From sequence record OZ346186.1: a stretch of 50,013 nt of DNA; one strand, 5' to 3'. This document shows positions 5,816 to 49,035 of the stretch, piece by piece. Position 1 is the first letter of the stretch. Every line of letters begins with the position of its first letter. The position numbers and the translations under genes are program-made. This DNA is from a phage. The notes beneath the pieces are model-generated. The model was not told where the DNA came from. It did not search any database and was given only the letters and a program-made list of their open reading frames with translations.

Positions 5816-5843
5816 TTGCACGTTTAACAAAAAATGCTATCAT
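5816..5843 (+). promoter_or_regulatory. sigma70-like promoter TTGCAC-16-TATCAT upstream of major capsid gene, with an inverted box copy in its spacer
   Basis: -35 5816-5821, -10 5838-5843; box reverse complement 5822-5840. Confidence 0.4.
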
Positions 5844-9544: not shown

Positions 9545-9581
9545 TACTGTACAATCATGCTACACGATTCATAATCAATTC

Positions 9582-9600
9582 TTTTAACAAAAAGTGCTAT
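9582..9600 (-). promoter_or_regulatory. box copy in orientation opposite to the late operon
   Basis: plus strand reads TTTTAACAAAAAGTGCTAT between terminator and chaperone gene. Confidence 0.35.
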
Positions 9601-9613
9601 CAAGGAGAAAGAA

Positions 9614-19964: not shown

Positions 19965-20192
19965 TTACATACTGCAATCAGCGTTTTTAAAGTTATCAAT
20001 ACTTACCCACTGAAAATTAAACGGATATCCAGCCTTAACAAGAGTGCGGTCGCCAACTCGTTTTACTCCAAAAATAGCAACTGAATACTGCATACCGCTA
20101 TTTTCATAAATAGCCGTGCATTCACGCTTAGGCATATTTGCGCAACCAGTCAGGGTTGCGGCTGCAATCAAAACGGCGATTAATTTTTTCAT
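19965..20192 (-). CDS. lipoprotein, Cor-like superinfection-exclusion candidate
   Basis: 75 aa, lipobox LTGC after 16-aa signal peptide; located just after tail genes as cor is in T1/phi80-type phages; preceded by box promoter. Confidence 0.5.
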   Translation of the reverse strand: MKKLIAVLIAAATLTGCANMPKRECTAIYENSGMQYSVAIFGVKRVGDRTLVKAGYPFNFQWVSIDNFKNADCSM

Positions 20193-20223
20193 CTTGGTAT
20201 CTCCTTAGTTGTTGTTGGTTGCA

Positions 20224-20267
20224 ACTATACACGATCTTGCGGCGGTCGTTTAGCAAAAAGTGCTATT
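20224..20267 (-). promoter_or_regulatory. conserved box (variant) + TATAGT, promoter cassette for Cor-like lipoprotein gene
   Basis: minus-strand box 20249-20267, -10-like 20224-20229, 18-nt spacer. Confidence 0.5.
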
Positions 20268-20340
20268 CTGTTCTTTTTGTTTTCCTGCGTTCTCAAATCT
20301 GCGGAGGCGTAAATTTAGCGCAAAAAGTGAGCAACAATAG

Positions 20341-20520
20341 AGCGTAATAAATACAGATAAATATATATATATATATATAAATCAATAAGTTAGCAGTATA
20401 TATATTTATATTTGTTTTTTCTTGTTATCTATGTTTTGTGTGATTTTGTGTGTCTGGTAATTTTATGTGGTTGTGTATGTGTCAGTGATTGTGTGTGTCT
20501 ATATATCTATATACGGCGCA
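20341..20520. repeat. AT-rich (TA)n and GT-rich low-complexity region with IHF-like site AATCAATAAGTTA; homolog of 40501-40720
   Basis: (TA)9 at 20361-20379; 15-mer aaatcaataagttag at 20379-20393; TGTG-rich 20431-20500. Confidence 0.6.
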
Positions 20521-20635
20521 AATGGAGGAACAAGAGAACAAAAAGACAACAAAGATATTTATCAATCACTTACATGTAAATTTTGTTATCCGATTCGCCT
20601 GGAACGTTGTTAGAACAGAAAAAACAAAATAACTG

Positions 20636-20663
20636 TTGACTAAACGCATTAAATAGCTAAAAT
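20636..20663 (+). promoter_or_regulatory. sigma70-like promoter TTGACT-16-TAAAAT upstream of exonuclease gene
   Basis: hexamers read directly at 20636-20641 and 20658-20663. Confidence 0.45.
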
Positions 20664-20692
20664 GCAGGCATACCAACAAACGAGGGCAAATA

Positions 20693-21754
20693 ATGAATAA
20701 GTTTATGGCGTACACCAGCGAAGAAATGAGCAACGAGCTTTATCACGATCCAGAAGCGTGGACGGCTGATTATGTTAGCGGTTCAAGCCTGGCAGAGATT
20801 TACAGCACATGCCCGGCAGCGTGGAAGTTCAAGCCGCGTGACGATAAGAGCAAGGCGCTAGTTTTTGGTACGCAGTCGCATACCAACTTTGAAAGCAAGG
20901 AGCTTTTCGAAAAAACTTATCGCCGTGCGCCAGCGCCAGAAGACTTTAAGGATCTGATAACCAGCCAAACGGCGCTTGCTGCAAAGCTGAAATCATTTGG
21001 CCTGAAAGGTACAACCGGAAAGACTTACCCCGAACTTATAAAAATGATGGTTGACTGCGGAGAAGACCTTAACGTCATGTGGTTAATCGACATGATCGCA
21101 GAAAGTCAGGCCAGGGCCGATGGGGTTCAGTTAATCGAGGCTAAAGATTACGATTCGTGCGTGGCAATGCGCCAGGTTCTGGAATCAATACCGGAACATA
21201 ACGCATGTATGAATAGCAAGACGGCACAGCGTGAATTATCGTTGTTCGGTGAAATTAACGGCGTAAAAGTCAAAGTGCGATGCGATCACGTTGACGTAAC
21301 AAAGAACGTCACCGCAACGCTGATTGATGGTTACGATGAAAAAGGCCAGCCGATTTGCCGCGATATTATTTATCCAGAGGCCATTGTGATCACAGACTAC
21401 AAAACTACAATGAGCGCGAATCCGGCTGAGTTTATGCGCCTGGCTTACAATCACGGCTATTATTTGAAAATGGCGTTGCAATGTGATTTATTCAGAAAAG
21501 CGTATCCAGAAGAAAAGCGACCTATAGTTGTGCGACTGTTAGCGCAAGAGAAGAAAGAGCCTTATTTGCCGTTGGCTTTCCGCATGAATAGCGAGCAGTT
21601 GAAGATCGGGCGCATTCAGTACATGAGCGTGATTAACCAGTTTGCCATGTGCCAGCAACATGACGTTTGGCCTTCGTATTCAAACGGTGAGCCTGAGGTT
21701 TGCCTTGATACTCCTGATTGGGTGCGCCGCCAGTTTAAGCAATATCTTATTTAA
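20693..21754 (+). CDS. recombination exonuclease (PD-(D/E)xK, RecE/lambda-Exo-like, putative)
   Basis: 353 aa; ITDYK motif; adjacent to Erf and SSB genes. Confidence 0.45.
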   Translation: MNKFMAYTSEEMSNELYHDPEAWTADYVSGSSLAEIYSTCPAAWKFKPRDDKSKALVFGTQSHTNFESKELFEKTYRRAPAPEDFKDLITSQTALAAKLKSFGLKGTTGKTYPELIKMMVDCGEDLNVMWLIDMIAESQARADGVQLIEAKDYDSCVAMRQVLESIPEHNACMNSKTAQRELSLFGEINGVKVKVRCDHVDVTKNVTATLIDGYDEKGQPICRDIIYPEAIVITDYKTTMSANPAEFMRLAYNHGYYLKMALQCDLFRKAYPEEKRPIVVRLLAQEKKEPYLPLAFRMNSEQLKIGRIQYMSVINQFAMCQQHDVWPSYSNGEPEVCLDTPDWVRRQFKQYLI

Positions 21755-23877: not shown

Positions 23878-26073
23878 TTATTTATTGAGCAGTGCAGCAA
23901 CAGCCGCCTTTAATTCGTCTATCTCCTTTTGCTGGTTTTCGATCATTCCTCCCATGTAAACCATAGCGCAAGCCATATCAGCCATGATAACGTTATTGTC
24001 AAGCGCTAATGTATCATCTGCTTTGTCAACAACAATTTGACGATCCACATATTCTTCACCTTCATCATTAACGCCTATAACATCTGCAAAAATGTCCCCG
24101 CCAGGTACTAGTTTTACATATTCAGGATCTATTTTTAGCAGATCCTGAGCTATCATCCCGAATCGCTGGATGTTGCTTCCATTGTATTTAAACATTGTAG
24201 GCAGCCACTGCATAACGCGATCATAGCTTTCTTTTCCATCTGTATAAATTATATCGTGCTTTAAATCCCTGTCAGAGTTAGCGGCCTTTTGAAAAATGAA
24301 ATTTCCACTTGATGACCATGTAGTTATATCGTTTGATGCTGGCTGGAACTGGAAGTTACAGAAAAAATTACCATCACCACGAAGCCTTAACGAGCAAAAA
24401 GGCCATGCATTATTTCCTTGTGGAATAAGACCCCAAGTTGCGCGAATAGGATAGCCACCAGTTGACTGTGTTCCCCATGAAAGACCTGGCGCCCAACCAC
24501 CGTCATTGTTAGCAACAATCTCACCCCAAACAAGAGCATTACCCCAATAATTTGGATCGTCCCACCCCATTTGTTGAGTTCTTCCGGTGTATTGAGCAGA
24601 ATGCGTTCTGCCGTCAGGGTAAAACTTGTGCATATAGCTTTGAACACCATGCTTATACAGTTCAATCCCAAAAGACTCAATTTGGGCAGTATCACCTCTG
24701 ATCAAACCTGCGATAGCGTAATCGTTATACCAGTTGTAACGACTTACACCAGTCCATGTGTTTATCGGCGGGTTCATAATTGAAAATAGTTGTGACGGAT
24801 TGTGTTCATTTCCTTCAGCATAAAAACCAGCCCCAGGAGCTAAGGAAATACTTTTCGCCCCTGAAAAAGTACCATTTTCATTAAACTGATAATACTGTGA
24901 TGCACCATTATGAAATACGCCTATTGTATGCTTTCCTACGCCTACTTGAGTCTCAAAATAAGACTGAGAAGATCCAATATCTTCACCTTGTGTACTCTTT
25001 AGTTTTGAATGGTATATACCTGCGTTTGCAGTATTTGCATTTTCCGTTTCATTTTCAACATTAAGGCTTAGAAATTTTGGTGCATGTTTTTCGCCAAGCC
25101 CTATATTGTTTCTGATGCCATTTGCGTCAATAGCTCCAGTACCACCAGAAGAAATAGCTAAAGGCACAGTTTCAAATGAGCCAGATCCTGAAGTGTCTCT
25201 CTGAAAAACAAGAAGACCATCATTTCTGATAACAAGCCTATATTCTCTATTTCTAGAGTACAAGATAGTATGCACGTAATCCTGAAAAAATGAATCAATG
25301 CTAAGCGTCTGGCGAGCAGATTCGATGTCAGAAAGATCTTTAAGGTTCTGATCCTTATGCAATAGATTTTCAGGATTTACCTGTTGCGCCCACTGGCGAG
25401 CTTCATCACGCGCAGTTTCAGCGCCAGCCTTTGCATTATTTGCCTCAACGGCATGATTTCCAGCAGTATCACGCGCCAATTCAGCCTGATCGCGAGCACC
25501 GAAAGCCTCTTGTTTAATGGCTTCCGTTTCGATTATAGCTGAATCTTTAATCTGTTGCGTTTGCGCCTTGATTGCGTCAGTGTCTGATTTAATCTGGTTT
25601 GTTTCAGCAACAGCAGAATCCTTTATCTGCTGAGTGTTGTTTTTCAGTTGTTCAGTAGCAGCACGATCATTGGCCGTTTTCTCTGCATCACCTTTAACCT
25701 GATTAGCCAGATCTTGCAACTGTTTCAGGTCAAAGTTTTTGAAAAATTCAATAGCTTCCTCGATCTGAGTTTCTTTGCTTTGGTAGTAGCGCAGAGTTTC
25801 CGCAACATCTTGCGCCAGGCCGTCAACCGTGATTGAGTCATGCAGCAAAATAATGTAATTGCTTCGCCCAATTTCAGCTCCTCCAGTTGTGATGGCGCGG
25901 ATTTGTGTATCGCTGATAACTTCACTGATCACAGCCGCTTGGAATGGTGCATCAATGAAAAAGATTGTTGCACCAGGACGAATGAGCGTTAGTTGCTCTC
26001 GCCATTTCGTTTCGTATCCAGTTATATAACCTTGAGCGTCCATTGACGCCTGTCCGGTTCTGTAAATTGCCAT
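23878..26073 (-). CDS. tail fibre with C-terminal intramolecular chaperone (peptidase S74-like) domain
   Basis: 731 aa from ATG 26073 (SD gggaga); C-terminus LKHDIIYTDGKESYDRVMQWL...GMIAQDL resembles S74 chaperone domain; repeats in N-terminal third; track ORF start at 26172 reads through terminator. Confidence 0.75.
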   Translation of the reverse strand: MAIYRTGQASMDAQGYITGYETKWREQLTLIRPGATIFFIDAPFQAAVISEVISDTQIRAITTGGAEIGRSNYIILLHDSITVDGLAQDVAETLRYYQSKETQIEEAIEFFKNFDLKQLQDLANQVKGDAEKTANDRAATEQLKNNTQQIKDSAVAETNQIKSDTDAIKAQTQQIKDSAIIETEAIKQEAFGARDQAELARDTAGNHAVEANNAKAGAETARDEARQWAQQVNPENLLHKDQNLKDLSDIESARQTLSIDSFFQDYVHTILYSRNREYRLVIRNDGLLVFQRDTSGSGSFETVPLAISSGGTGAIDANGIRNNIGLGEKHAPKFLSLNVENETENANTANAGIYHSKLKSTQGEDIGSSQSYFETQVGVGKHTIGVFHNGASQYYQFNENGTFSGAKSISLAPGAGFYAEGNEHNPSQLFSIMNPPINTWTGVSRYNWYNDYAIAGLIRGDTAQIESFGIELYKHGVQSYMHKFYPDGRTHSAQYTGRTQQMGWDDPNYWGNALVWGEIVANNDGGWAPGLSWGTQSTGGYPIRATWGLIPQGNNAWPFCSLRLRGDGNFFCNFQFQPASNDITTWSSSGNFIFQKAANSDRDLKHDIIYTDGKESYDRVMQWLPTMFKYNGSNIQRFGMIAQDLLKIDPEYVKLVPGGDIFADVIGVNDEGEEYVDRQIVVDKADDTLALDNNVIMADMACAMVYMGGMIENQQKEIDELKAAVAALLNK

Positions 26074-26130
26074 GCGTTTTCTCCCATGTTGCATGTTAAT
26101 GTCAATGCAGATAATAGCATTTGATAAGGC

Positions 26131-26154
26131 AAAAAAAAACCCCGCAATGCGGGG
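26131..26154 (-). terminator. rho-independent terminator between primase and tail fibre genes
   Basis: minus strand ccccgc att gcgggg + T9. Confidence 0.65.
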
Positions 26155-26172
26155 TAAAAGTAGCAGTGACAT

Positions 26173-27105
26173 TTAGAGAAGAGATTCAGGTTTGTAAACC
26201 TTCCTCTCTATCCCTTGCCTGTAATTATCATTAATCGGCATCATAATTTCAAGACCTCTTTCCTCAGCAGCAATGATCGCGTCACGGTCTGTACTCTTAC
26301 AGACAACTCGCATTCTTCTGTTGCCTTTATACCTGTAAGCTACAATCTCAATGTTAGTTGCATCAAAGCAGGCCCAAACCTCTTGACCAGTTGCAAGGTG
26401 AATATGTTGCGCATCAATCCAGTCAACGCAAAGATAGATCGTCTTATCTGTGCTTCCTGTTCTCACAATTGACCCGCGCGTGTAGTCCTTTGCGAGAAAA
26501 GACTTATTACCTTCTTCATCAATGAAAAGCACATTGCACATTTCATCATCAATTTCATCTGAATGTACCAGGTAACATGGGAGCGCGTGAATGTATCGAC
26601 CATCTTTAACGCCGCATTCATAATGACCATCTTCAGGCGGGTATATTCCTTCATATGTGCTTAACGGCGTGCGATCAAATTTTAGTGTTTTTGACATAAC
26701 GCGATCGCAGCATTCATGGCTTGCCTGTTTCCCAAATGAATAACCAGAATCACGAGATACTCGCTTATTTGCCTTGATTCTATAGTCCTGCGGAACTTTT
26801 CCAAGAAAGCGGCCCAAAATATTGATCACTTCGCTGTAAGGTTCTCCGGTTAGTTTCATGATCCAACCAATTCCAGTATCATTACCGCACACGTTGCAGA
26901 TCGCACCGCCATCGCCTTTTTTATCGCCAAGTTTATCCGTCCACCTGAAGCGATCCTTTCCGCCGCAGTGGGGGCAAGATTGATGCTTGCCGTTAAAAAC
27001 TTCATTTGGAAGACCGCAAATACTTTGTAGCGCCTCACGCCATAATCCCTGCATATATGGGAGAACATCTTCCTTTTGATAAACCATAAAGTTTTCGTTA
27101 TTCAT
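26173..27105 (-). CDS. DNA primase (zinc-ribbon type, putative)
   Basis: CPHCGGKDRFRW...CNVCG zinc-binding motif typical of phage primase N-termini; start ATG 27105 preferred over TTG 27120. Confidence 0.5.
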   Translation of the reverse strand: MNNENFMVYQKEDVLPYMQGLWREALQSICGLPNEVFNGKHQSCPHCGGKDRFRWTDKLGDKKGDGGAICNVCGNDTGIGWIMKLTGEPYSEVINILGRFLGKVPQDYRIKANKRVSRDSGYSFGKQASHECCDRVMSKTLKFDRTPLSTYEGIYPPEDGHYECGVKDGRYIHALPCYLVHSDEIDDEMCNVLFIDEEGNKSFLAKDYTRGSIVRTGSTDKTIYLCVDWIDAQHIHLATGQEVWACFDATNIEIVAYRYKGNRRMRVVCKSTDRDAIIAAEERGLEIMMPINDNYRQGIERKVYKPESLL

Positions 27106-27162
27106 ATGCACCTCAAACAAAAAAAAGCCTGACAGATGATAACATCATGCCAGGCATTGTTT

Positions 27163-27636
27163 TTAGCAATTAGTGCTTTCAGGTTTATACAGGAATCCTC
27201 CAGGTTCATAATCTGACATTCTTACCACTCGCAACATTTCACGCTTATCACATCTCTTTGTGAGCGGTTTGCCATTGGAATCAAATCGCAGATCTGGACG
27301 GCAGAATGACGCGCGATAGCCTTGACAACCATATTTCTTGTAATCGTTATGCACCTTTTGAGCGCCAGCGGCTGAAATCATACCGCGAACGCGCCACTGA
27401 TTTACAGTTTGCTGGCTAACGTTAAGACGCTTTGCCATTGCTGACACGCTGCCGTAATACTCAATAAGAATGTCAAGCCGTGCTTTTAGTCCGGCGCGCA
27501 CTTCATCTTTTAAAACATAGTATCCTGTAGGGCGCTTGCGCTTTTTCTTATCTTTACCCCGTCGAGTTCCGTTATTGCCATTAATTGTGCGCTTGTCAAT
27601 CTTGCCTGTTGATACTGCGATTCGCTGTTCTTTCAT
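27163..27636 (-). CDS. HTH DNA-binding protein (putative transcription regulator)
   Basis: 157 aa; basic N-terminus (KDKKKRKR) and helix-turn-helix-like AKRLNVSQQTVNQWR. Confidence 0.45.
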   Translation of the reverse strand: MKEQRIAVSTGKIDKRTINGNNGTRRGKDKKKRKRPTGYYVLKDEVRAGLKARLDILIEYYGSVSAMAKRLNVSQQTVNQWRVRGMISAAGAQKVHNDYKKYGCQGYRASFCRPDLRFDSNGKPLTKRCDKREMLRVVRMSDYEPGGFLYKPESTNC

Positions 27637-29765: not shown

Positions 29766-30171
29766 TAAAGGCGATTATCTGGAGTTTTACGAAAGAGATC
29801 CGACAGATACTCTGAAAGAGGAATCGCACCAGATCGGGGCGTTTCAATGGGTAACTTATGCTCATCCTGAATTACTGGCATGGCATACGAAAAACGAGGG
29901 CGACAAGGGAATCGCCACCGCAATGATGGATCAGCAAGCCGGACTCGTTAAGGGCGTAAGTGATTTTATCATCCTGATTGGATTAAAAGGCCGTTACCCG
30001 TTTGCAGCAATTGAGATGAAACGCGTCAATAAGTCAGGCAAGGGGAAGGCTTCACCAGTCAGCAAGGAGCAAAAAGCCTTCTTGCGCCGTGTGCGTGAGC
30101 TTGGCGGATTCGCTGCCGTAACATACGGATATAAGCAATTCATGATCGCGGTAGAATACATGATGAAATAG
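29752..30171 (+). CDS. VRR-NUC domain nuclease
   Basis: 139 aa; D...E.K nuclease core (DFIILIG...AIEMKR) typical of VRR-NUC, commonly paired with phage helicases. Confidence 0.6.
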   Translation: MAMTDKGDYLEFYERDPTDTLKEESHQIGAFQWVTYAHPELLAWHTKNEGDKGIATAMMDQQAGLVKGVSDFIILIGLKGRYPFAAIEMKRVNKSGKGKASPVSKEQKAFLRRVRELGGFAAVTYGYKQFMIAVEYMMK

Positions 30172-30211
30172 CACTTTTTGTTAAAACAGGCGCGAAGGAT
30201 TGCGCCATAAT
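30167..30211 (+). promoter_or_regulatory. conserved box + hairpin + CATAAT (promoter cassette upstream of dam)
   Basis: box 30167-30187 includes stop TAG of VRR-NUC gene; hairpin ggcgc..gcgcc; -10-like 30206-30211. Confidence 0.5.
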
Positions 30212-30245
30212 AACACCAGTTCAACAAGCAACAGGTAATTAAGAA

Positions 30246-30947
30246 ATGAGCAAAGAAACCGAAGTGACATTTGAACAAATAGAACGCGAAACATTCATTG
30301 GCAATGCTCTCGCTACTGGTGGTCATTACCAGGCTGTTAAACCAAATCAATATTTCAAAGTGACTGGCAACCGATATAACGGCAGCAATACGCCGGACAT
30401 TGTGCGCGATTTGTGGTCTACGCCGTATGAGCTTGTCGCATGGATGGAAAGCGAATACGGTGATTATGACATCGACGCGGCGGCAAGCAAAGAAAATGCT
30501 GTATGTGAAAAATTCTACAGCAAGGAAACAAATTGCTTAAAGCGTTGGTGGGGTAGTAATAAGCATATATGGCTGAATCCACCGTACAGCAATATTACTC
30601 CATTTGTTAAGAAGGCGATTGAGCAAATGGAGCACAACAACCAGATCGACATTCTGTTACCTTGCGACACGTCAACAGGATGGTTTTATGAGGCGCAGCA
30701 GCGCGCAGCGGAAATCATCTGGATCACTGGCGAAGTTTACCAGGAGGACGGAACAGAATATTCCCGCACAGGACGCCTTGCGTTTACCTCGGCTCTTACA
30801 GGTAAGCCAGTGCAGGGAAACAACAAAGGAAGCGTTATTTTCATCATGCGCGAACTTAAAGAAGGTGAGCAGCAGAAAACTCGATACGTTAAAATCAGCG
30901 ACATTTGCCCTTCGGTGGCAGACCGTCGCGCACGGAAACGGAGCTAA
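30246..30947 (+). CDS. dam: DNA N6-adenine methyltransferase (Dam-like)
   Basis: 233 aa with NPPY catalytic motif (LNPPYS). Confidence 0.75.
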   Translation: MSKETEVTFEQIERETFIGNALATGGHYQAVKPNQYFKVTGNRYNGSNTPDIVRDLWSTPYELVAWMESEYGDYDIDAAASKENAVCEKFYSKETNCLKRWWGSNKHIWLNPPYSNITPFVKKAIEQMEHNNQIDILLPCDTSTGWFYEAQQRAAEIIWITGEVYQEDGTEYSRTGRLAFTSALTGKPVQGNNKGSVIFIMRELKEGEQQKTRYVKISDICPSVADRRARKRS

Positions 30948-33056: not shown

Positions 33057-33272
33057 ATGAAAGATTTTTTAAACGCTGCAACTTCCGGCACTGGCGGCGC
33101 GTCAATCACTGGCGCGGTAACTGGTCAAACAACTATCGCAATAGCCAGCTTAGTTTTGATGGCTGCATTTGGTATGTGGGGCGCTTATCTTCGCTGGCGT
33201 GATAGTAAGGCGCTACGTGACGCGCTTGAATGCGGTGATATTAAGAAAGCTATTGAGATCAGAGGTAAATAA
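33057..33272 (+). CDS. holin (single-TMD, pinholin-like)
   Basis: 71 aa, one hydrophobic segment, charged C-terminus, immediately upstream of endolysin. Confidence 0.6.
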
Positions 33273-33760
33273 TGAGTATAAAACAAAGAGTGACCGCTGC
33301 GGCTTTTGGCGTTGCTCTTGCCCTTACTTCTCCGCTACTGGAGGAAATAGAAGGAGTAAAATATAAGCCGTACAAAGATATTGCTGGAATATGGACGGTT
33401 TGCGCCGGAATAACTGGACATGACGTAATACCAGGTAAAACGTACACACAGAGAGAGTGCGATGCGCTACTGGCAAAGCATATCAAGATCGCAAAGGATG
33501 AAGTTGATAAGCGTGTGAAGGTTGACATTCCTGATACAATGCGCGCGGCGATGTATTCATTCACATACAATGCTGGCACTGGCGCTTTTAGAAATTCAAC
33601 CATGCTTAAGCTGATTAATAACGGTCGTTATATGGAAGCGTGCGATCAGTTATGGCGATGGACAAAATACACCAATCCAAAAACAGGAAAGAAAGAAACG
33701 TCTAAAGGACTGCGCAACCGCCGCGCGGTGGAATTTAAATATTGCATTAAGGATCTGTAA
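33272..33760 (+). CDS. endolysin, T4-lysozyme-type muramidase with SAR-like N-terminus
   Basis: E-x8-D-x5-T catalytic spacing ([16 protein letters not shown]); Gly/Ala-rich weakly hydrophobic N-terminal segment. Confidence 0.75.
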
Positions 33761-33762
33761 TT

Positions 33763-34161
33763 ATGCGAAAGTTATCAATAATCGCGATCGCTGTTATTTT
33801 GTCTGGATGTTCAAGCGTTACGCCACTGACCGGATTGATAGGAAGCAAGCCTGAGATAACAGCACAGGCAGGAGCGGAGAACGTAAAGCAGACCGTTGGA
33901 GTTACCGCAAAGCAGGACACCAGCACAAAACAGGAAACTACAATAAAGGAATCTGCGGTTGATAAGGTGGACACTTCCAGCAAGAAGGATTTCACTACGT
34001 CAACCATTCAGGCAAACACCATCAAGGCTGATAAAATCCAGGTTGTGCAGGGTGAGCAAAGGAAGTGGTACGATCCTATAATCTATTGCGCTGCAATTTT
34101 CAGTGGTCTTTTGTCAATGCTTTACTTTTCCTACCGCAAAGGCAACAAAAAGGAGGCTTAA
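33763..34161 (+). CDS. unimolecular spanin (u-spanin)
   Basis: 132 aa; N-terminal lipoprotein signal (lipobox LSGC) and C-terminal TMD; directly after endolysin. Confidence 0.6.
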   Translation: MRKLSIIAIAVILSGCSSVTPLTGLIGSKPEITAQAGAENVKQTVGVTAKQDTSTKQETTIKESAVDKVDTSSKKDFTTSTIQANTIKADKIQVVQGEQRKWYDPIIYCAAIFSGLLSMLYFSYRKGNKKEA

Positions 34162-34429: not shown

Positions 34430-34474
34430 AATATACCCGATACGAGATCGGGAGTCTTAACAAAAAGTGCTATT
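34430..34474 (-). promoter_or_regulatory. conserved box + hairpin + TATATT (minus strand)
   Basis: box 34454-34474 includes stop of 34470..34664; hairpin cccgat..atcggg; -10-like 34430-34435. Confidence 0.5.
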
Positions 34475-34985: not shown

Positions 34986-36569
34986 TTACCCCAGCAATGT
35001 TGGATTTACGAAAACAACGCCATTAATCACACAAATATAATTTCTTTCTTCAAGCATCGGCAGCAGTTGCGTTTCCATACGCTTCATTACGCCAGCCTGA
35101 CCAACAAACGGCTTAACTTTTCGTGCAGCCTCATATATGGCGCGCACATTCAAGATTCCCTTGTTAGCCTTACCGTGTCGAGTGATAATCTCGATTAGTT
35201 TACCCATTTCAGCATCATCACCAGCATAGCCAGAAGCGTTGGCGGCGCTAATGTATGTTTTGCTCAACTCGCTAAACATCAGCAGTGCTTCTTGAACGGT
35301 TTCAACTTCAATCTCTTTCGACTTCTGAGGGTATCCACCAGGATTAAACCAGTTGCGGATAGTGTGCAAAACCGAAGCAATCCTGATCACCTGCTTATCC
35401 ATTTTGCCAAGAGCACCGCGCAGCATTGTATGCGAATACTTTCCGCCATCGGCAAGGTGCGGTTCCATCTCCTGACGAGCCATGTTAAGAACTCGCATTG
35501 CTGATTTGCTGATCTTAAGCTGGATGTTTGATTCACTCATGATGTTATGGATCAGCTTGAAATATTGGCTTTTCAGTTCTCCATCAACAGGTTCATAAGT
35601 AGAATCACCGTTATCATCAACAAACTTTCTACGGCCTAAAAATGATTCCTCACGCACAAGCAAATAACGCTCACTCACACCGATACCGCGCGATCCTGCA
35701 TCCATGATGGCATTTATTGTTTCATCCTGGGCAATTACCGCCATACAGCCAAGAGCTTTAAAACTCATATTGTTGTCAGCGTTTGCACGAGCTATAGAAA
35801 CATGACCATGATCCCATGCTTTTAGCACAAGTTCGCTGTTGGTTTTACGTTCGCTATTGGCATATGTCAGACCTAAAAGGCTGTTAATACTTGTTGCCTC
35901 GTCTGAAATCACAGCAAAGTTACCCTGGCGATTGTTGATTCTTGCAAGTCCTTCCGGCGTTGTGTCGGACACAGGGAAAACGATGTCACACATCTTTTCC
36001 AGTTTTTCTTCCAGATCTTCTTTCTCCTGGTACAGAGACTCCATATCAGCGCCGGAGCGCTCGCTTTTCATCTCTTTTGCAAGACCTGCCAACTTTGCCT
36101 GAATCTTTTTTCTTTCCTTCTTTCGATGATCATTAATTCTTTCCACTTCAGCAACCATAGGAGCAAGTGCCAGGCTGTTAACGGCAGATTTACCAGTTGA
36201 TGGAGGCTGGCTTGTGACAACGTAAAGAGCGGTTGGTTGATCCGTTCCGTGATACTCAACCGTGAAGCGTCCAAGCATTGCAGCAGATACACAGCCGATA
36301 AAATGCATATATGCCGATGATTCAGGGAATTGAACAGATCGAGCAATGTTTCGCGCCAACTTTCCAACAACATCAACATCATTGCCAAGAGAAATTACAG
36401 GGTAGCGATCGTTTCCGTTATTAACATCATTAACCTCACCCCAAAAGCTGGACGATTGACGGTATCCGTTAGCCTGAATGGACACGCGCACCGGAGACAA
36501 TCCTTGTGCATCAGCTAATTCGATAATTTGTTTTGGTGTTAGTTTATTGGTTTCAAACGAAAAATTCAT
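34986..36569 (-). CDS. P-loop replication ATPase (helicase/primase-associated, putative)
   Basis: 527 aa from ATG 36569 (SD aaggag); Walker A SQPPSTGKS and Walker B-like AVISDE. Confidence 0.55.
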   Translation of the reverse strand: MNFSFETNKLTPKQIIELADAQGLSPVRVSIQANGYRQSSSFWGEVNDVNNGNDRYPVISLGNDVDVVGKLARNIARSVQFPESSAYMHFIGCVSAAMLGRFTVEYHGTDQPTALYVVTSQPPSTGKSAVNSLALAPMVAEVERINDHRKKERKKIQAKLAGLAKEMKSERSGADMESLYQEKEDLEEKLEKMCDIVFPVSDTTPEGLARINNRQGNFAVISDEATSINSLLGLTYANSERKTNSELVLKAWDHGHVSIARANADNNMSFKALGCMAVIAQDETINAIMDAGSRGIGVSERYLLVREESFLGRRKFVDDNGDSTYEPVDGELKSQYFKLIHNIMSESNIQLKISKSAMRVLNMARQEMEPHLADGGKYSHTMLRGALGKMDKQVIRIASVLHTIRNWFNPGGYPQKSKEIEVETVQEALLMFSELSKTYISAANASGYAGDDAEMGKLIEIITRHGKANKGILNVRAIYEAARKVKPFVGQAGVMKRMETQLLPMLEERNYICVINGVVFVNPTLLG

Positions 36570-36596
36570 TGATGATAACTCCTTTTTGATGCGGCA

Positions 36597-36641
36597 ATAA
36601 TACCGCACCAATGCTACCCGCATTTAACAAAAAATGCTATT
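36597..36641 (-). promoter_or_regulatory. conserved box (variant) + TATTAT, upstream of replication ATPase gene
   Basis: box 36621-36641 includes stop TAG of 36637..36858; -10-like 36597-36602. Confidence 0.5.
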
Positions 36642-39648: not shown

Positions 39649-39894
39649 TCATTGTTGATCGTGTTTAACTGCCATCAGAATATCACATGACTCGTTAATA
39701 AATTTTGCCATGCGCTTATCATCCCCATCAGGGATTAGCGCGTTAAACTCGCGTTTGCTACTGAACACAGTCACTTTATGGAATGATGCGAACGGCATCG
39801 ACGGGAACTCGACGGTTTGCGTCAAGATCCGCAATCCCATCTTTTTGGCCCTTACTTGGGCCTCAGCGAGTTCAAAATCCACTTCATTAATCAT
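39649..39894 (-). CDS. hypothetical protein
   Basis: 81 aa. Confidence 0.5.
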   Translation of the reverse strand: MINEVDFELAEAQVRAKKMGLRILTQTVEFPSMPFASFHKVTVFSSKREFNALIPDGDDKRMAKFINESCDILMAVKHDQQ

Positions 39895-40163
39895 TTCTTG
39901 ATCTCCTCAGCGATAAACTTCAGGACTTTGCGCAAAAACACTTCATTATTGATGGTCGCTGGCAATTCTTCTTTTACTTCTTGCGGCAGGTAAACGTTGC
40001 CATGCCAGGTTAAGCAATCGTAGTTGATACGATAAGAGCAAAGCCACTCGCAATCGTTATCCGCTTCCCAAATGCAGAGTTGCAGAACATCACCGAAATC
40101 CTCAACAGTCAGATCCAGACCGTGACGCTTTGCAAAGTTGAAAGTGGTTTTGCTGATGTTCAT
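39891..40163 (-). CDS. hypothetical protein (first gene of leftward early block)
   Basis: 90 aa; SD caggag; downstream of box promoter 40201-40246. Confidence 0.55.
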   Translation of the reverse strand: MNISKTTFNFAKRHGLDLTVEDFGDVLQLCIWEADNDCEWLCSYRINYDCLTWHGNVYLPQEVKEELPATINNEVFLRKVLKFIAEEIKK

Positions 40164-40200
40164 TTGCTTTCTCCTGATGGGTATCTCGTTTCGATGTGTG

Positions 40201-40246
40201 CATTATGCCGAATCCAGTCAGGCACGTTTTAACAAAAAGTGCTATT
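40201..40246 (-). promoter_or_regulatory. conserved box + ATAATG (minus strand), first promoter of leftward early block
   Basis: box 40226-40246; -10-like 40201-40206. Confidence 0.5.
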
Positions 40247-40260
40247 TGCTTACTGGTCAT

Positions 40261-40300
40261 TATTCCATCTATTCCATTAATCAGGAATAACAGGAATAAC
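40261..40300. repeat. short tandem direct repeats (attccat x2; caggaataa x2)
   Basis: tattccatctattccatt and caggaataacaggaataac read directly. Confidence 0.5.
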
Positions 40301-40500
40301 TCATTCGCGATCACCTGGATTGGGAGACTTTGAGTTTGGTCAATTTTAATCAAGTGATTAACTTTTTGTGTGGAGGGGATAGAGAAACGCGGCCTCTTGC
40401 GTCCTTTCCGGCAATCCTGGCGCGCACATCTGTTATTTTTGTTCCCCATGTTATCTCAAATAAGCCTCCGCACTTTTAGATAACAGAATCGGCGTTCATA

Positions 40501-40720
40501 AACAAAAAGAACAAAATAAAATTTATATATATACCCATAAAATCAATAAGTTAGTTATATATGTATTTATATTTGTTATTTACTGTTGAGCTTGTTATAT
40601 GGGTATATGGTGGGGTGGTATTGTTTGTGGTGATATGTATGTGTGATTGTATATTTTTTAATCAATGGTGATGTGTGGTGATTTTTGTATGTATATATAT
40701 GGGTATGGAGCAATCCTCCG
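40501..40720. repeat. AT-rich and GT-rich low-complexity region with IHF-like site; homolog of 20341-20520
   Basis: same 15-mer at 40540-40554 followed by similar tatat..tatttatatttgtt and GTG/TGG-rich stretch. Confidence 0.6.
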
Positions 40721-40899
40721 TCAACCAAGTCAACAAGGTCATTTTTAACAGAAAAACCAATGACTTAACTGAAGCATTTTGTTATCTTTAAACGCGCCAC
40801 ATGACAAAAATTGTTATTAAAACACAAAAATACATTGACACGTATGAAAGGCAAGGCAATAATGCATCCAGTTTAAACGCAACAAAAGGAGTAGACGCC

Positions 40900-41385
40900 A
40901 TGAGCGAAGAAAATATTAGCACCATGTCGCGTAGTGAGTTCTGCGATATGCTTCGCAGCCTGGGTGCGGCAATTGGTAGCGGCGAGCGTAACAATGTATT
41001 CATGCCAGCACTTTTCTTGTGCGCTAACGTGGAGAACGGCGACGCAATTACAGCATCGTACATGCGCCAGGTTGTAAACCGCGTACCAGAAGTGAAGCAA
41101 AAAGGCGTGATCAGCATTAAGCGAAAGGTGACTGATGAGGGTGATGGCTTTGTGTTTACGCTCACAGAAGCCAAAAGCAAGCCACGCGTTCTGACTGGTG
41201 AAGAAATCGACGAGATCGCAGAAAAGCGCGCAGAGAAGGCGGTAAGCAAAATTCTTAATCACCTGGTAAGCGTAATGCCAAATATCACAGACCTGGAAGG
41301 CGACAAACTTGCTGGAGCGTGTGAGGCTATCGGGCGCTACCAGGATATGATTCGTAAACTCGCTGGAGGAAAAGAGGATGAATAA
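40900..41385 (+). CDS. hypothetical protein (first gene of rightward block)
   Basis: 161 aa from ATG 40900 (SD aaaggag); track ORF from 40801. Confidence 0.55.
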   Translation: MSEENISTMSRSEFCDMLRSLGAAIGSGERNNVFMPALFLCANVENGDAITASYMRQVVNRVPEVKQKGVISIKRKVTDEGDGFVFTLTEAKSKPRVLTGEEIDEIAEKRAEKAVSKILNHLVSVMPNITDLEGDKLAGACEAIGRYQDMIRKLAGGKEDE

Positions 41386-41638
41386 GGCATTAATTGGAGT
41401 TTTGATTGCAATTGCTACCCTGACCGGATGCGAAAAGGCATCGGAATCAACGGTTGTCGTAGGCGTGGAGTCAGATTTCAAAGTCGGTCGCCTGTTCACT
41501 GTTGACGGATGCACAGCATACAGATTCTATGATAACGGTCGCGCGATCTATTACACCAATTGCAAAGGCGCAACGGATAGCACGTACAACAGCGGAAAGA
41601 ACGTAATGCACCAGCAAGTCACAACAGATATTAAATAG
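41378..41638 (+). CDS. lipoprotein
   Basis: 86 aa; signal peptide MNKALIGVLIAIATLTGC nearly identical to that of the Cor-like gene; stop TAG embedded in box. Confidence 0.55.
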   Translation: MNKALIGVLIAIATLTGCEKASESTVVVGVESDFKVGRLFTVDGCTAYRFYDNGRAIYYTNCKGATDSTYNSGKNVMHQQVTTDIK

Positions 41639-48655: not shown

Positions 48656-48684
48656 TTGACAACGATTTCCTGATTGGTTAACAT
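48656..48684 (+). promoter_or_regulatory. sigma70-like promoter TTGACA-17-TAACAT
   Basis: hexamers at 48656-48661 and 48679-48684; followed by structured leader and terminator-like hairpin. Confidence 0.45.
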
Positions 48685-48747
48685 CTTCGGTGTTTACATA
48701 AGAGCGGCGTTAGTGCCGAACGGGTGGCGCGGTTGCCACGCAACAAC

Positions 48748-48790
48748 GGCGATATGCAGGTTTTTACCGTAAGACGTATCGCCTTTTTTA
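48748..48790 (+). terminator. terminator/attenuator-like hairpin in leader of 48802 gene
   Basis: ggcgata..tatcgcc + TTTTTT, about 60 nt downstream of sigma70-like promoter. Confidence 0.45.
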
Positions 48791-48801
48791 TAGGTGAATA
48801 T

Positions 48802-49035
48802 ATGGAAAAGTACAAATTAACTTTCATGTTTAATGGCATGGTGATGAATCCCCTAAATGGTTACGCTTGCAATAGCTTTTCTGTTACCGTGAATGAGGAT
48901 GAGATTGATGATGATGGCAAATTCATTCGAATTGGTGAATACTTGTACCCAGTTCACAATATCAATTGCATCAAACGCGAGATCGTAAAAGATGAAGTAC
49001 AAGGTAAGATTGACGATCAGGCGAATGGGGCGTAA
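48802..49035 (+). CDS. hypothetical protein
   Basis: 77 aa from ATG 48802 (SD aggtga); longer track ORF from 48724 would read through a terminator-like hairpin. Confidence 0.45.
   Translation: MEKYKLTFMFNGMVMNPLNGYACNSFSVTVNEDEIDDDGKFIRIGEYLYPVHNINCIKREIVKDEVQGKIDDQANGA

Follow-up and report, generated by a model that had tools for sequence, protein, structure and literature searches.

Twin replication-origin-like intergenic modules in the genome of a T1-like phage

T1 ranks among the seven classical T phages, and T1-like phages are notorious for contaminating laboratories and fermentations; to our knowledge, the replication origin of the T1 family has never been located. This study concerns a 50,013-nucleotide (nt) stretch of phage DNA (sequence record OZ346186.1), referred to below as the window, which is a complete, circularly permuted T1-like genome (Drexlerviridae, Hanrivervirus) opened at the start of the large terminase gene, with the small terminase gene running from 49493 to the window end. 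Two of its intergenic regions, IG1 and IG2, carry the two copies of one module, at 20262-20692 and 40425-40899. We give an even chance to the reading that they are twin replication-origin-like elements, each joined to an early sigma-70 promoter. They provide two precise, conserved, and directly testable candidate loci for the T1-family origin, for which the unwinding cores, the repeat motifs, and possible binding proteins are named, and their description clarifies the anatomy of the pac-proximal region.

Origins made of two distant elements are known from other phages. The satellite phage P4 has two separated noncoding cis elements, ori and crr (cis replication region), to which its alpha primase-helicase binds and which have the same short iteron, TGTTCACC, as annotated in the P4 record. 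The window likewise has a layout of two elements. Its primase is homologous to the primase domain of the P4 alpha protein (E = 8e-13), and the repeat TGTTCAC of the TLS lineage agrees with the P4 iteron at 7 of 8 positions. However, the window has no TGTTCACC array, its repeats being TGTTATC/GAACA, and its elements lie 20 kb apart versus 4.5 kb in P4. Its primase and helicase are separate proteins, the helicase (DUF3987/MCM-like) has no BLAST similarity to alpha, and the winged helix of this helicase gives no specific match to the alpha origin-binding domain. Moreover, in the P4 genome the least stable DNA lies elsewhere than at ori.

The Bacillus phage SPP1, a virulent pac-type siphovirus, has two homologous, far-apart origins, oriL and oriR, with initiator boxes by AT-rich DNA. 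It differs from the window in that oriL lies within a gene and is bound by G38P, and the two share neither sequence nor protein homology. Iteron-type origins, e.g., lambda ori and the oriV of pSC101 and R6K, combine iterons, an AT-rich unwinding element, and a site for integration host factor (IHF) near promoters whose transcription can activate initiation. Unlike them, the window lacks DnaA boxes, has short (6 to 8 nt), loosely spaced repeats that converge on the unwinding element from both sides, and holds two copies per genome. By analogy with P4 ori/crr or SPP1 oriL/oriR, an iteron/AT-rich origin in two copies would be an element of a known kind.

Within the T1 family, the left third of IG2 is equivalent to the place where pac has been mapped in T1 and TLS and contains one copy of a 21-nt repeat, but the twin module to its right and the copy upstream of recE are undescribed in the TLS and SU57 papers. 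The 2024 reannotation of TLS described 21-nt repeats, sought an origin, and reported no origin-type repeats (PMC11447400), and none was found in SU57 (SU57 paper). We found no description of twin regions or of an origin in the literature on T1-like phages, although the 2004 T1 and 2006 Rtp genome papers may contain an earlier mention.

Homology and anatomy of the twin modules

The two regions are bounded as follows.

40164-40899: IG2, flanked by a gene read leftward (39891-40163) and by the DUF7174 gene, which is read rightward from its ATG at 40900 (open reading frame [ORF] list; Pfam and PHROG matches of the flanking genes)
20193-20692: IG1, the twin region, between the cor lipoprotein gene (19965-20192, - strand) and recE (20693-21754, + strand)

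IG1 and IG2 are true direct-repeat homologues. Their best local alignment pairs 20359-20492 with 40519-40650 (score, 97) in a 135-nt core with 71% identity and a longest identical stretch of 15 nt. Dinucleotide shuffles reached 23.2 ± 2.6 (maximum, 34), and shuffles of 40-nt blocks, which keep the local composition, reached 37 ± 7 (maximum, 63). Ordered common motifs widen the homology, in the same orientation, to about 20262-20692 versus 40425-40899. An earlier note on this DNA, made from the sequence alone, had called IG2 homologous to the first region and proposed a pairwise alignment as the check. With ordered motifs in both regions and a score far above the shuffles, the similarity is more than low complexity and the claim stands for the right two thirds of IG2, whereas the left third (40164-40425) has no counterpart in IG1 except a 21-nt box. 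All the sequence motifs named in that note were recovered as well. The 15-mer AAATCAATAAGTTAG, described there as IHF-like, occurs in the window only at 40540-40554 and 20379-20393; the TA-rich segment and the GT-rich tract are present in IG2; and the ttttgttatc and agaaaaac motifs are found in both regions as ATTTTGTTATC (40776 and 20580) and AACAGAAAAA (40747 and 20614), though in swapped order.

Read from the left on the + strand, both copies contain a leftward box promoter, TGTTnn repeats, a small GC-rich island, an nnAACA repeat, and a (TA)n core, and continue with one or two TGTTAT repeats, a G+T tract of ~100 nt, two nnAACA-type repeats, more TGTTAT(C) copies, and a strong sigma-70 promoter. 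The parts to the right of the box promoter in IG2 are as follows.

40431-40513: left iteron-like cluster, with TGTTAT at 40431, TGTTC at 40440, TGTTATC at 40449, GATAACA at 40479, and GAACA at 40509 (motif maps)
40499-40598: AT-rich core, a candidate DNA-unwinding element, holding the 15-mer and an IHF consensus at 40541-40553
40574-40598, + strand: pair of TGTTAT repeats, 19 nt apart, directly right of the AT-rich core
40599-40705, + strand: G+T-rich tract
40720-40817: right-hand repeats, with GTCAAC twice at 40720-40738, TGTTATC at 40780, and TGTTAT at 40812 (sequence and motif maps)
40835-40863, + strand: rightward sigma-70 promoter, TTGACA-17-AATAAT, matching 11 of 12 consensus positions and serving the DUF7174 gene and small ORFs downstream (promoter scan)

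The corresponding parts of IG1 are the following.

20247-20268: box
20345-20444: AT-rich core, with the 15-mer at 20379-20393
20403-20510 (approximate): G+T tract
20636-20663, + strand: promoter, TTGACT-16-TAAAAT, more than 90% conserved in 45 loci

The physical properties of the cores set them apart from the rest of the genome. According to nearest-neighbor calculations, they are its two least stable 100-nt duplexes (20345-20444, z = +5.5; 40499-40598, z = +4.9), the third reaching only +3.2, and they also coincide with the two top peaks of (TA)n density. Among all 80-nt stretches of the genome, those beginning at 20403 (0.84) and 40609 (0.82) have the highest G+T content. The 15-mer contains a perfect IHF core consensus, WATCAANNNNTTR, i.e., a predicted site, and 4 of the 10 consensus matches predicted genome-wide (40541, 40348, 20380, and 20560) fall in the two regions, which make up 2.5% of its length. 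A TGTTAT-type pair spaced by 18 to 19 nt recurs in IG2 of TLS and g049800 and in IG1 of T1. Chi sites and clusters of GATC were absent from the regions or unenriched there. Sites resembling sigma-70 promoters occur in the regions at no higher frequency than in shuffled sequence, and the idea that the AT-rich core is a cluster of promoters was therefore rejected.

The 9-mer TGCGGAGGC of IG1 (20300-20308) has a reverse-complemented counterpart, GCCTCCGCA, in the matching place of IG2 (40464-40472), where other lineages have the small GC-rich island TCCGGCGT.

Conservation of the pair and its link to replication genes

The pair is a family-wide feature. In T1 (NC_005833), the two largest annotated gaps lie between cor and recE (29851-30377) and across the record ends (48675-48836 plus 1-538), and they contain both the top two (TA)n peaks of that genome and its two least stable segments. 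A TA-rich peak stands ~330 nt upstream of recE in all 45 recE loci taken from IMG/VR, and among the helicase loci with sufficient upstream sequence, most have such a peak 3.5 to 5 kb upstream of the helicase gene. Local scores between IG1 and IG2 range from 50 to 127 in 17 of 18 genomes; all exceed the dinucleotide null (23 ± 3), but only about half exceed the block-shuffle maximum of 63. Within genomes, the two regions score 97 (window) and 66 (T1), whereas the window scored against T1 gives only 40 for IG1 and 42 for IG2. The paralogues are therefore more alike than the orthologues of different subfamilies, which points to concerted evolution between the two copies. IG1 has matches in 150 phage records, which in 136 cases span at least 80% of its length, and IG2 in 22 records over at least 80% (megablast stringency), its best matches being the Hanrivervirus phages JLBYU41 (98%), JLBYU09, SFP17, and Henu8, in this order. 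The right part of IG2 is far more variable than IG1.

Relatives clearly show short repeats that cluster by an unwinding element and are rare elsewhere, as expected of iterons, whereas the evidence in the window is weaker. The two T1 regions contain six copies of TGTAACA/TGTTACA and four of GTGTAACA, versus zero of either in the other 47.6 kb. In the window, 5 of 19 GATAACA and 4 of 8 AGATAACA copies fall in the two regions. The repeat variant is lineage specific and mostly common to both copies: TAAACA in g049800 (seven and six copies in the two regions) and g080888, GTGAACA/TGGAACA arrays in TLS, GAAACA in g032802, and ATAACA in Hanrivervirus. Across six lineages, NNAACA usage in IG1 and IG2 of the same genome correlates with a mean r of 0.64, a value reached by 1 of 720 pairing permutations. 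The repeat positions relative to the unstable core are conserved across lineages, both to its left (TGTTnn at -85 to -118, nnAACA at -27 to -63) and to its right (TGTTnn at +19 to +50, then the G+T tract, then nnAACA at +123 to +188).

The replication proteins encoded by the phage are a Zn-ribbon primase, a Cro/YdaS-type helix-turn-helix (HTH) protein next to it, a superfamily 2 helicase, and a DUF3987 helicase; the Pfam and PHROG matches of the window proteins include no DNA polymerase. Three of these proteins matter here.

26176-27120, - strand: P4-alpha-type primase
27166-27636, - strand: Cro/YdaS-type HTH protein
34989-36623, - strand: DUF3987 helicase (AlphaFold mean confidence [pLDDT], 89), MCM-like according to Foldseek (probability, 1.0), with a C-terminal winged helix

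Four distant phages (L104, L106, L108, and L109) carry the same module of HTH protein, primase, and DUF3987 helicase, with helicases 36 to 39% identical to that of the window and E values of 5e-10 to 4e-5 for the HTH protein. In each of the four, the DNA of lowest stability in the locus (z = 3.6 to 4.9) is found within a long intergenic region that adjoins the helicase gene or is at most 5 kb away from it.

L104: 9503-10000
L108: 6611-7200
L106: 2070-2625
L109: 8388-8918

In three of them, the unstable segment is flanked by enriched iterons of their own, GGTAAGAT in L104 and L108 and ACACGCCCACG in L106. The motifs ATCTTACC (L108) and CGCCCACG (L106) each occur seven times inside the region and never outside it, and overall the iterons number 7 to 10 copies, versus 0 elsewhere for ACACGCCCACG. 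The iteron/AT-rich layout may thus be a general marker for origins of the HTH-primase-DUF3987 module, and its occurrence with this module in unrelated phages could help to find origins in uncharacterized genomes.

The HTH protein of the window is very basic in a stretch near its N terminus (RRGKDKKKRKR) and carries a conserved motif with a Cys, C.GYRASFCRPDLRFDSNGK, in its C-terminal part. Its HTH and RPDL parts are conserved in homologues of 86 to 87 amino acids in distant phages.

The origin-like reading and its alternatives

The earlier note had offered twin regulatory or replication elements as one explanation of the pair, and this view is favored by the extreme duplex instability, the iteron-like repeats, the IHF consensus, the family-wide presence of the pair, and its analogues in distant phages. 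Origin function was ranked above a purely transcriptional role mainly because of the association with the replication module in these phages. In the mechanism that we propose, a phage DNA-binding protein, for which the Cro/YdaS-type HTH protein is the best candidate, would bind the TGTTnn/nnAACA repeats on both sides of the core, while IHF would bend the DNA at the consensus site within it. The (TA)n core, as the least stable DNA of the genome, would then melt by superhelical stress, aided by transcription from the adjacent promoters, and allow loading of the MCM-like DUF3987 helicase. The P4-alpha-type primase would prime, possibly on the G+T-rich strand, and since the phage encodes no polymerase, host DNA polymerase III would extend the primers. 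The cores have no BLAST match in Escherichia coli genomes and plasmids, and hence no satellite or plasmid copy hints at their function. Cumulative GC skew merely tracks gene orientation and is uninformative on the origin.

As to the reader of the repeats, the recognition helix of the HTH protein varies between lineages with different repeats (VSQQTVNQW, VTHQVIQQW, and VSNQTVQGW), a covariation that, being confounded with phylogeny, is no more than suggestive. The winged helix of the helicase was considered for the same role and is unsupported, since its helix 3 remains nearly constant despite the repeat variants.

Several observations weigh against replication origins in IG1 and IG2. The repeat enrichment in the window is modest and would fail correction over all 7-mers, and its two regions prefer different variants, i.e., mainly GAACA in IG1 and ATAACA in IG2 (r = 0.3). 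The IHF 15-mer of IG1 lacks family-wide conservation, and there are no DnaA boxes in either region. Lineages that differ in their repeats have an almost identical helix 3 in the helicase winged helix, and the separately modeled domain gave only generic winged-helix matches in Foldseek, the P4 alpha origin-binding domain being absent from the top 50. Two origins are unusual for a virulent phage of 50 kb, T1 may replicate largely by way of recombination (recE/erf), and IG2 overlaps the pac area as well. Repeats, bent AT-rich DNA, and divergent promoters would fit a transcriptional control region, too. Finally, we infer from sequence the identity of the binding protein, initiation at the cores, and all the steps in between.

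The strongest competitor, which we nevertheless consider unlikely, assigns the twin modules to transcriptional control only, as operator arrays for the Cro/YdaS-like HTH protein that would adjust the divergent early promoters together with AT-rich DNA that is curved or bent by IHF. Both copies do lie between divergent promoters, a TGTAACA/TGTTACA pair overlaps the rightward promoter in IG2 of T1, no block of IG1 is more conserved than its rightward promoter, and the differences of the HTH recognition helix between lineages with different repeat variants would suit an operator-binding protein. Yet the module is present in only 2 of ~20 promoter regions of the genome, and ~200 nt of extremely AT-rich and G+T-rich DNA are unneeded for operators. 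The distance between core and promoter ranges from 206 to 292 nt, which speaks against a fixed helical phase of the two, and in L109 the counterpart follows the helicase gene, where there is no divergent promoter region.

A variant of the origin-like reading would make both modules one bipartite origin resembling P4 ori/crr, bridged over 20 kb by a complex of phage HTH protein and helicase, with the IG2 copy, 200 nt from pac, coupling the start of replication with the start of packaging. Such a replication-packaging hub would be of a type undescribed for tailed phages, and we think it improbable.

Packaging itself might be the purpose of the modules, their repeats and bent DNA representing small-terminase recognition elements of pac and the IG1 copy a secondary or vestigial pac; SPP1 pac has repeated boxes in bent DNA. 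The features of IG2 that bear on this question are the following.

40259-40300: palindromic array of 9-mers, TTATTCC twice and GGAATAA twice, with 9-nt spacing and the two pairs mutually inverted, upstream of the leftward promoter
40316-40335: position aligning by homology with base 1 of the T1 and TLS GenBank records, the putative area of pac or the first headful cut

Both records open within the IG2 equivalent: when the left parts are aligned, base 1 of T1, whose bases 1-2800 are annotated as a terminal repeat region, falls at ~40316 and base 1 of TLS at 40329, where the window reads AGACTT. The TLS pac was located there by restriction analysis, its record starting at the assigned AGATTT (TLS paper), and the genome terminus of SU57 was put in the untranslated region equivalent to IG2 (SU57 paper). 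IG2 therefore most likely also contains pac. However, the mapped cut aligns just to the right of the TTATTCC/GGAATAA array, left of the homologous module and outside it. In addition, the TLS and SU57 papers describe a single pac region, although conservation is higher for the IG1 copy than for the IG2 copy, and distant phages have the element beside a helicase gene. We consequently regard a packaging role of the modules as quite improbable.

The earlier note had also suggested that long direct repeats might serve as substrates for recombination that swaps the early module, a proposal that found no support. There is in fact a mosaic joint at 40454, with a 1.2-kb cassette (40455-41632) swapped among relatives, and the greater likeness of paralogues than orthologues suggests gene conversion between the copies. 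All relatives examined are nonetheless colinear across both regions, identical runs in the 71%-identical core do not exceed 15 nt, deletion between direct repeats would lose essential replication and lysis genes, and the exchanged unit is this small cassette rather than the 20-kb segment, so that exchange, inversion, or deletion of the segment through the twins is very unlikely. The cassette comprises the twin core, the DUF7174 gene, and the DUF4884 lipoprotein gene and is replaced as a unit by a diverged version in egaa, g040344 (IMG/VR contig 3300045988_040344), and Shigella phage 2019SD1. Its joints are TGTTATC at 40449-40455, where the similarity ends exactly at 40454, and the next 21-nt box at 41633, which is mosaicism of the ordinary kind, joined at short conserved sequences.

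That the regions encode a small RNA or protein missed by annotation is just as hard to believe: short ORFs of 28 codons (40705-40791) and 19 codons (20523-20582) both start with ATGGAG and a weak promoter-like site lies at 40495-40522, but the ORFs have no Shine-Dalgarno sequence and are absent from T1 and from IG2 of egaa. Rfam (gathering score) and a tRNA scan gave 0 matches in the window, and RNA folding in 120-nt windows on both strands yielded z scores between -2.5 and +1.8; a structured RNA was rejected with no z score below -2.5, and a conserved small ORF was rejected as well, none being conserved or preceded by a Shine-Dalgarno sequence.

Genomic setting and the left third of IG2

The segment of 20 kb between the twins encodes recE/erf/ssb, the primase, two helicases, and methylases, and it also contains a tail-fiber gene (23878-26172, - strand) and a holin/endolysin/spanin cassette (33057-34161, + strand). 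Because of the latter two, it is a mixture of early and late functions, and of the earlier note's description of a pair that brackets a 20-kb early region, the bracketing is correct, but not the purely early character. The same note had placed IG2 between diverging transcription units, and this applies to IG1 as well. The start of the rightward gene at 40900 is backed by an AGGAG 8 nt upstream (40884-40888) and by a match to DUF7174 from residue 9 onward; in some relatives, an upstream ATG, at 40801, is annotated instead. Leftward transcription was attributed to a box promoter, and the expected elements were found.

40202-40247, - strand: leftward box promoter, with the 21-nt box AAATAGCACTTTTTGTTAAAAC at 40226-40247 and a CATAAT -10 hexamer at 40202-40207 (repeat families D1-D5 and I5-I23)

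This copy of the box is 100% identical to the reference copy of the family and starts 84 nt upstream of the start codon of the leftward gene. The 21-nt direct repeats of TLS, with the consensus aaATAGCACnnnTTGnTAAAA, were described with their function left unknown (PMC11447400); a Drexlerviridae box is expected to be intergenic, to run along with transcription, and to lie ~76 nt before the start codon. Most early and middle transcription units of the window have the box ahead of them, oriented along with transcription, in ~15 copies, e.g., at 30165, 31206, 41632, 42095, and 47363 on the + strand and at 34454, 36621, 37297, 39349, and 40226 on the - strand. Two further boxes, in gaps between late genes (5821-5842 and 9581-9602), oppose the flanking + strand genes and have a different spacing to the CATAAT-like hexamer.

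The tandem repeats reported for the left third were confirmed, with attccat at 40262-40268 and 40271-40277 and caggaataa at 40282-40290 and 40291-40299. The palindromic array to which they belong is conserved in egaa and T1 (ATTATTCCA...TGGAATA twice), and TLS and g049800 have other paired repeats in the same place.

A small lipoprotein gene stands beside each twin, cor at IG1 and the DUF4884 gene at IG2. The two genes have in common a 48-nt stretch encoding the signal peptide (20137-20184 versus 41389-41436), which is 79% complementary, on opposite strands.

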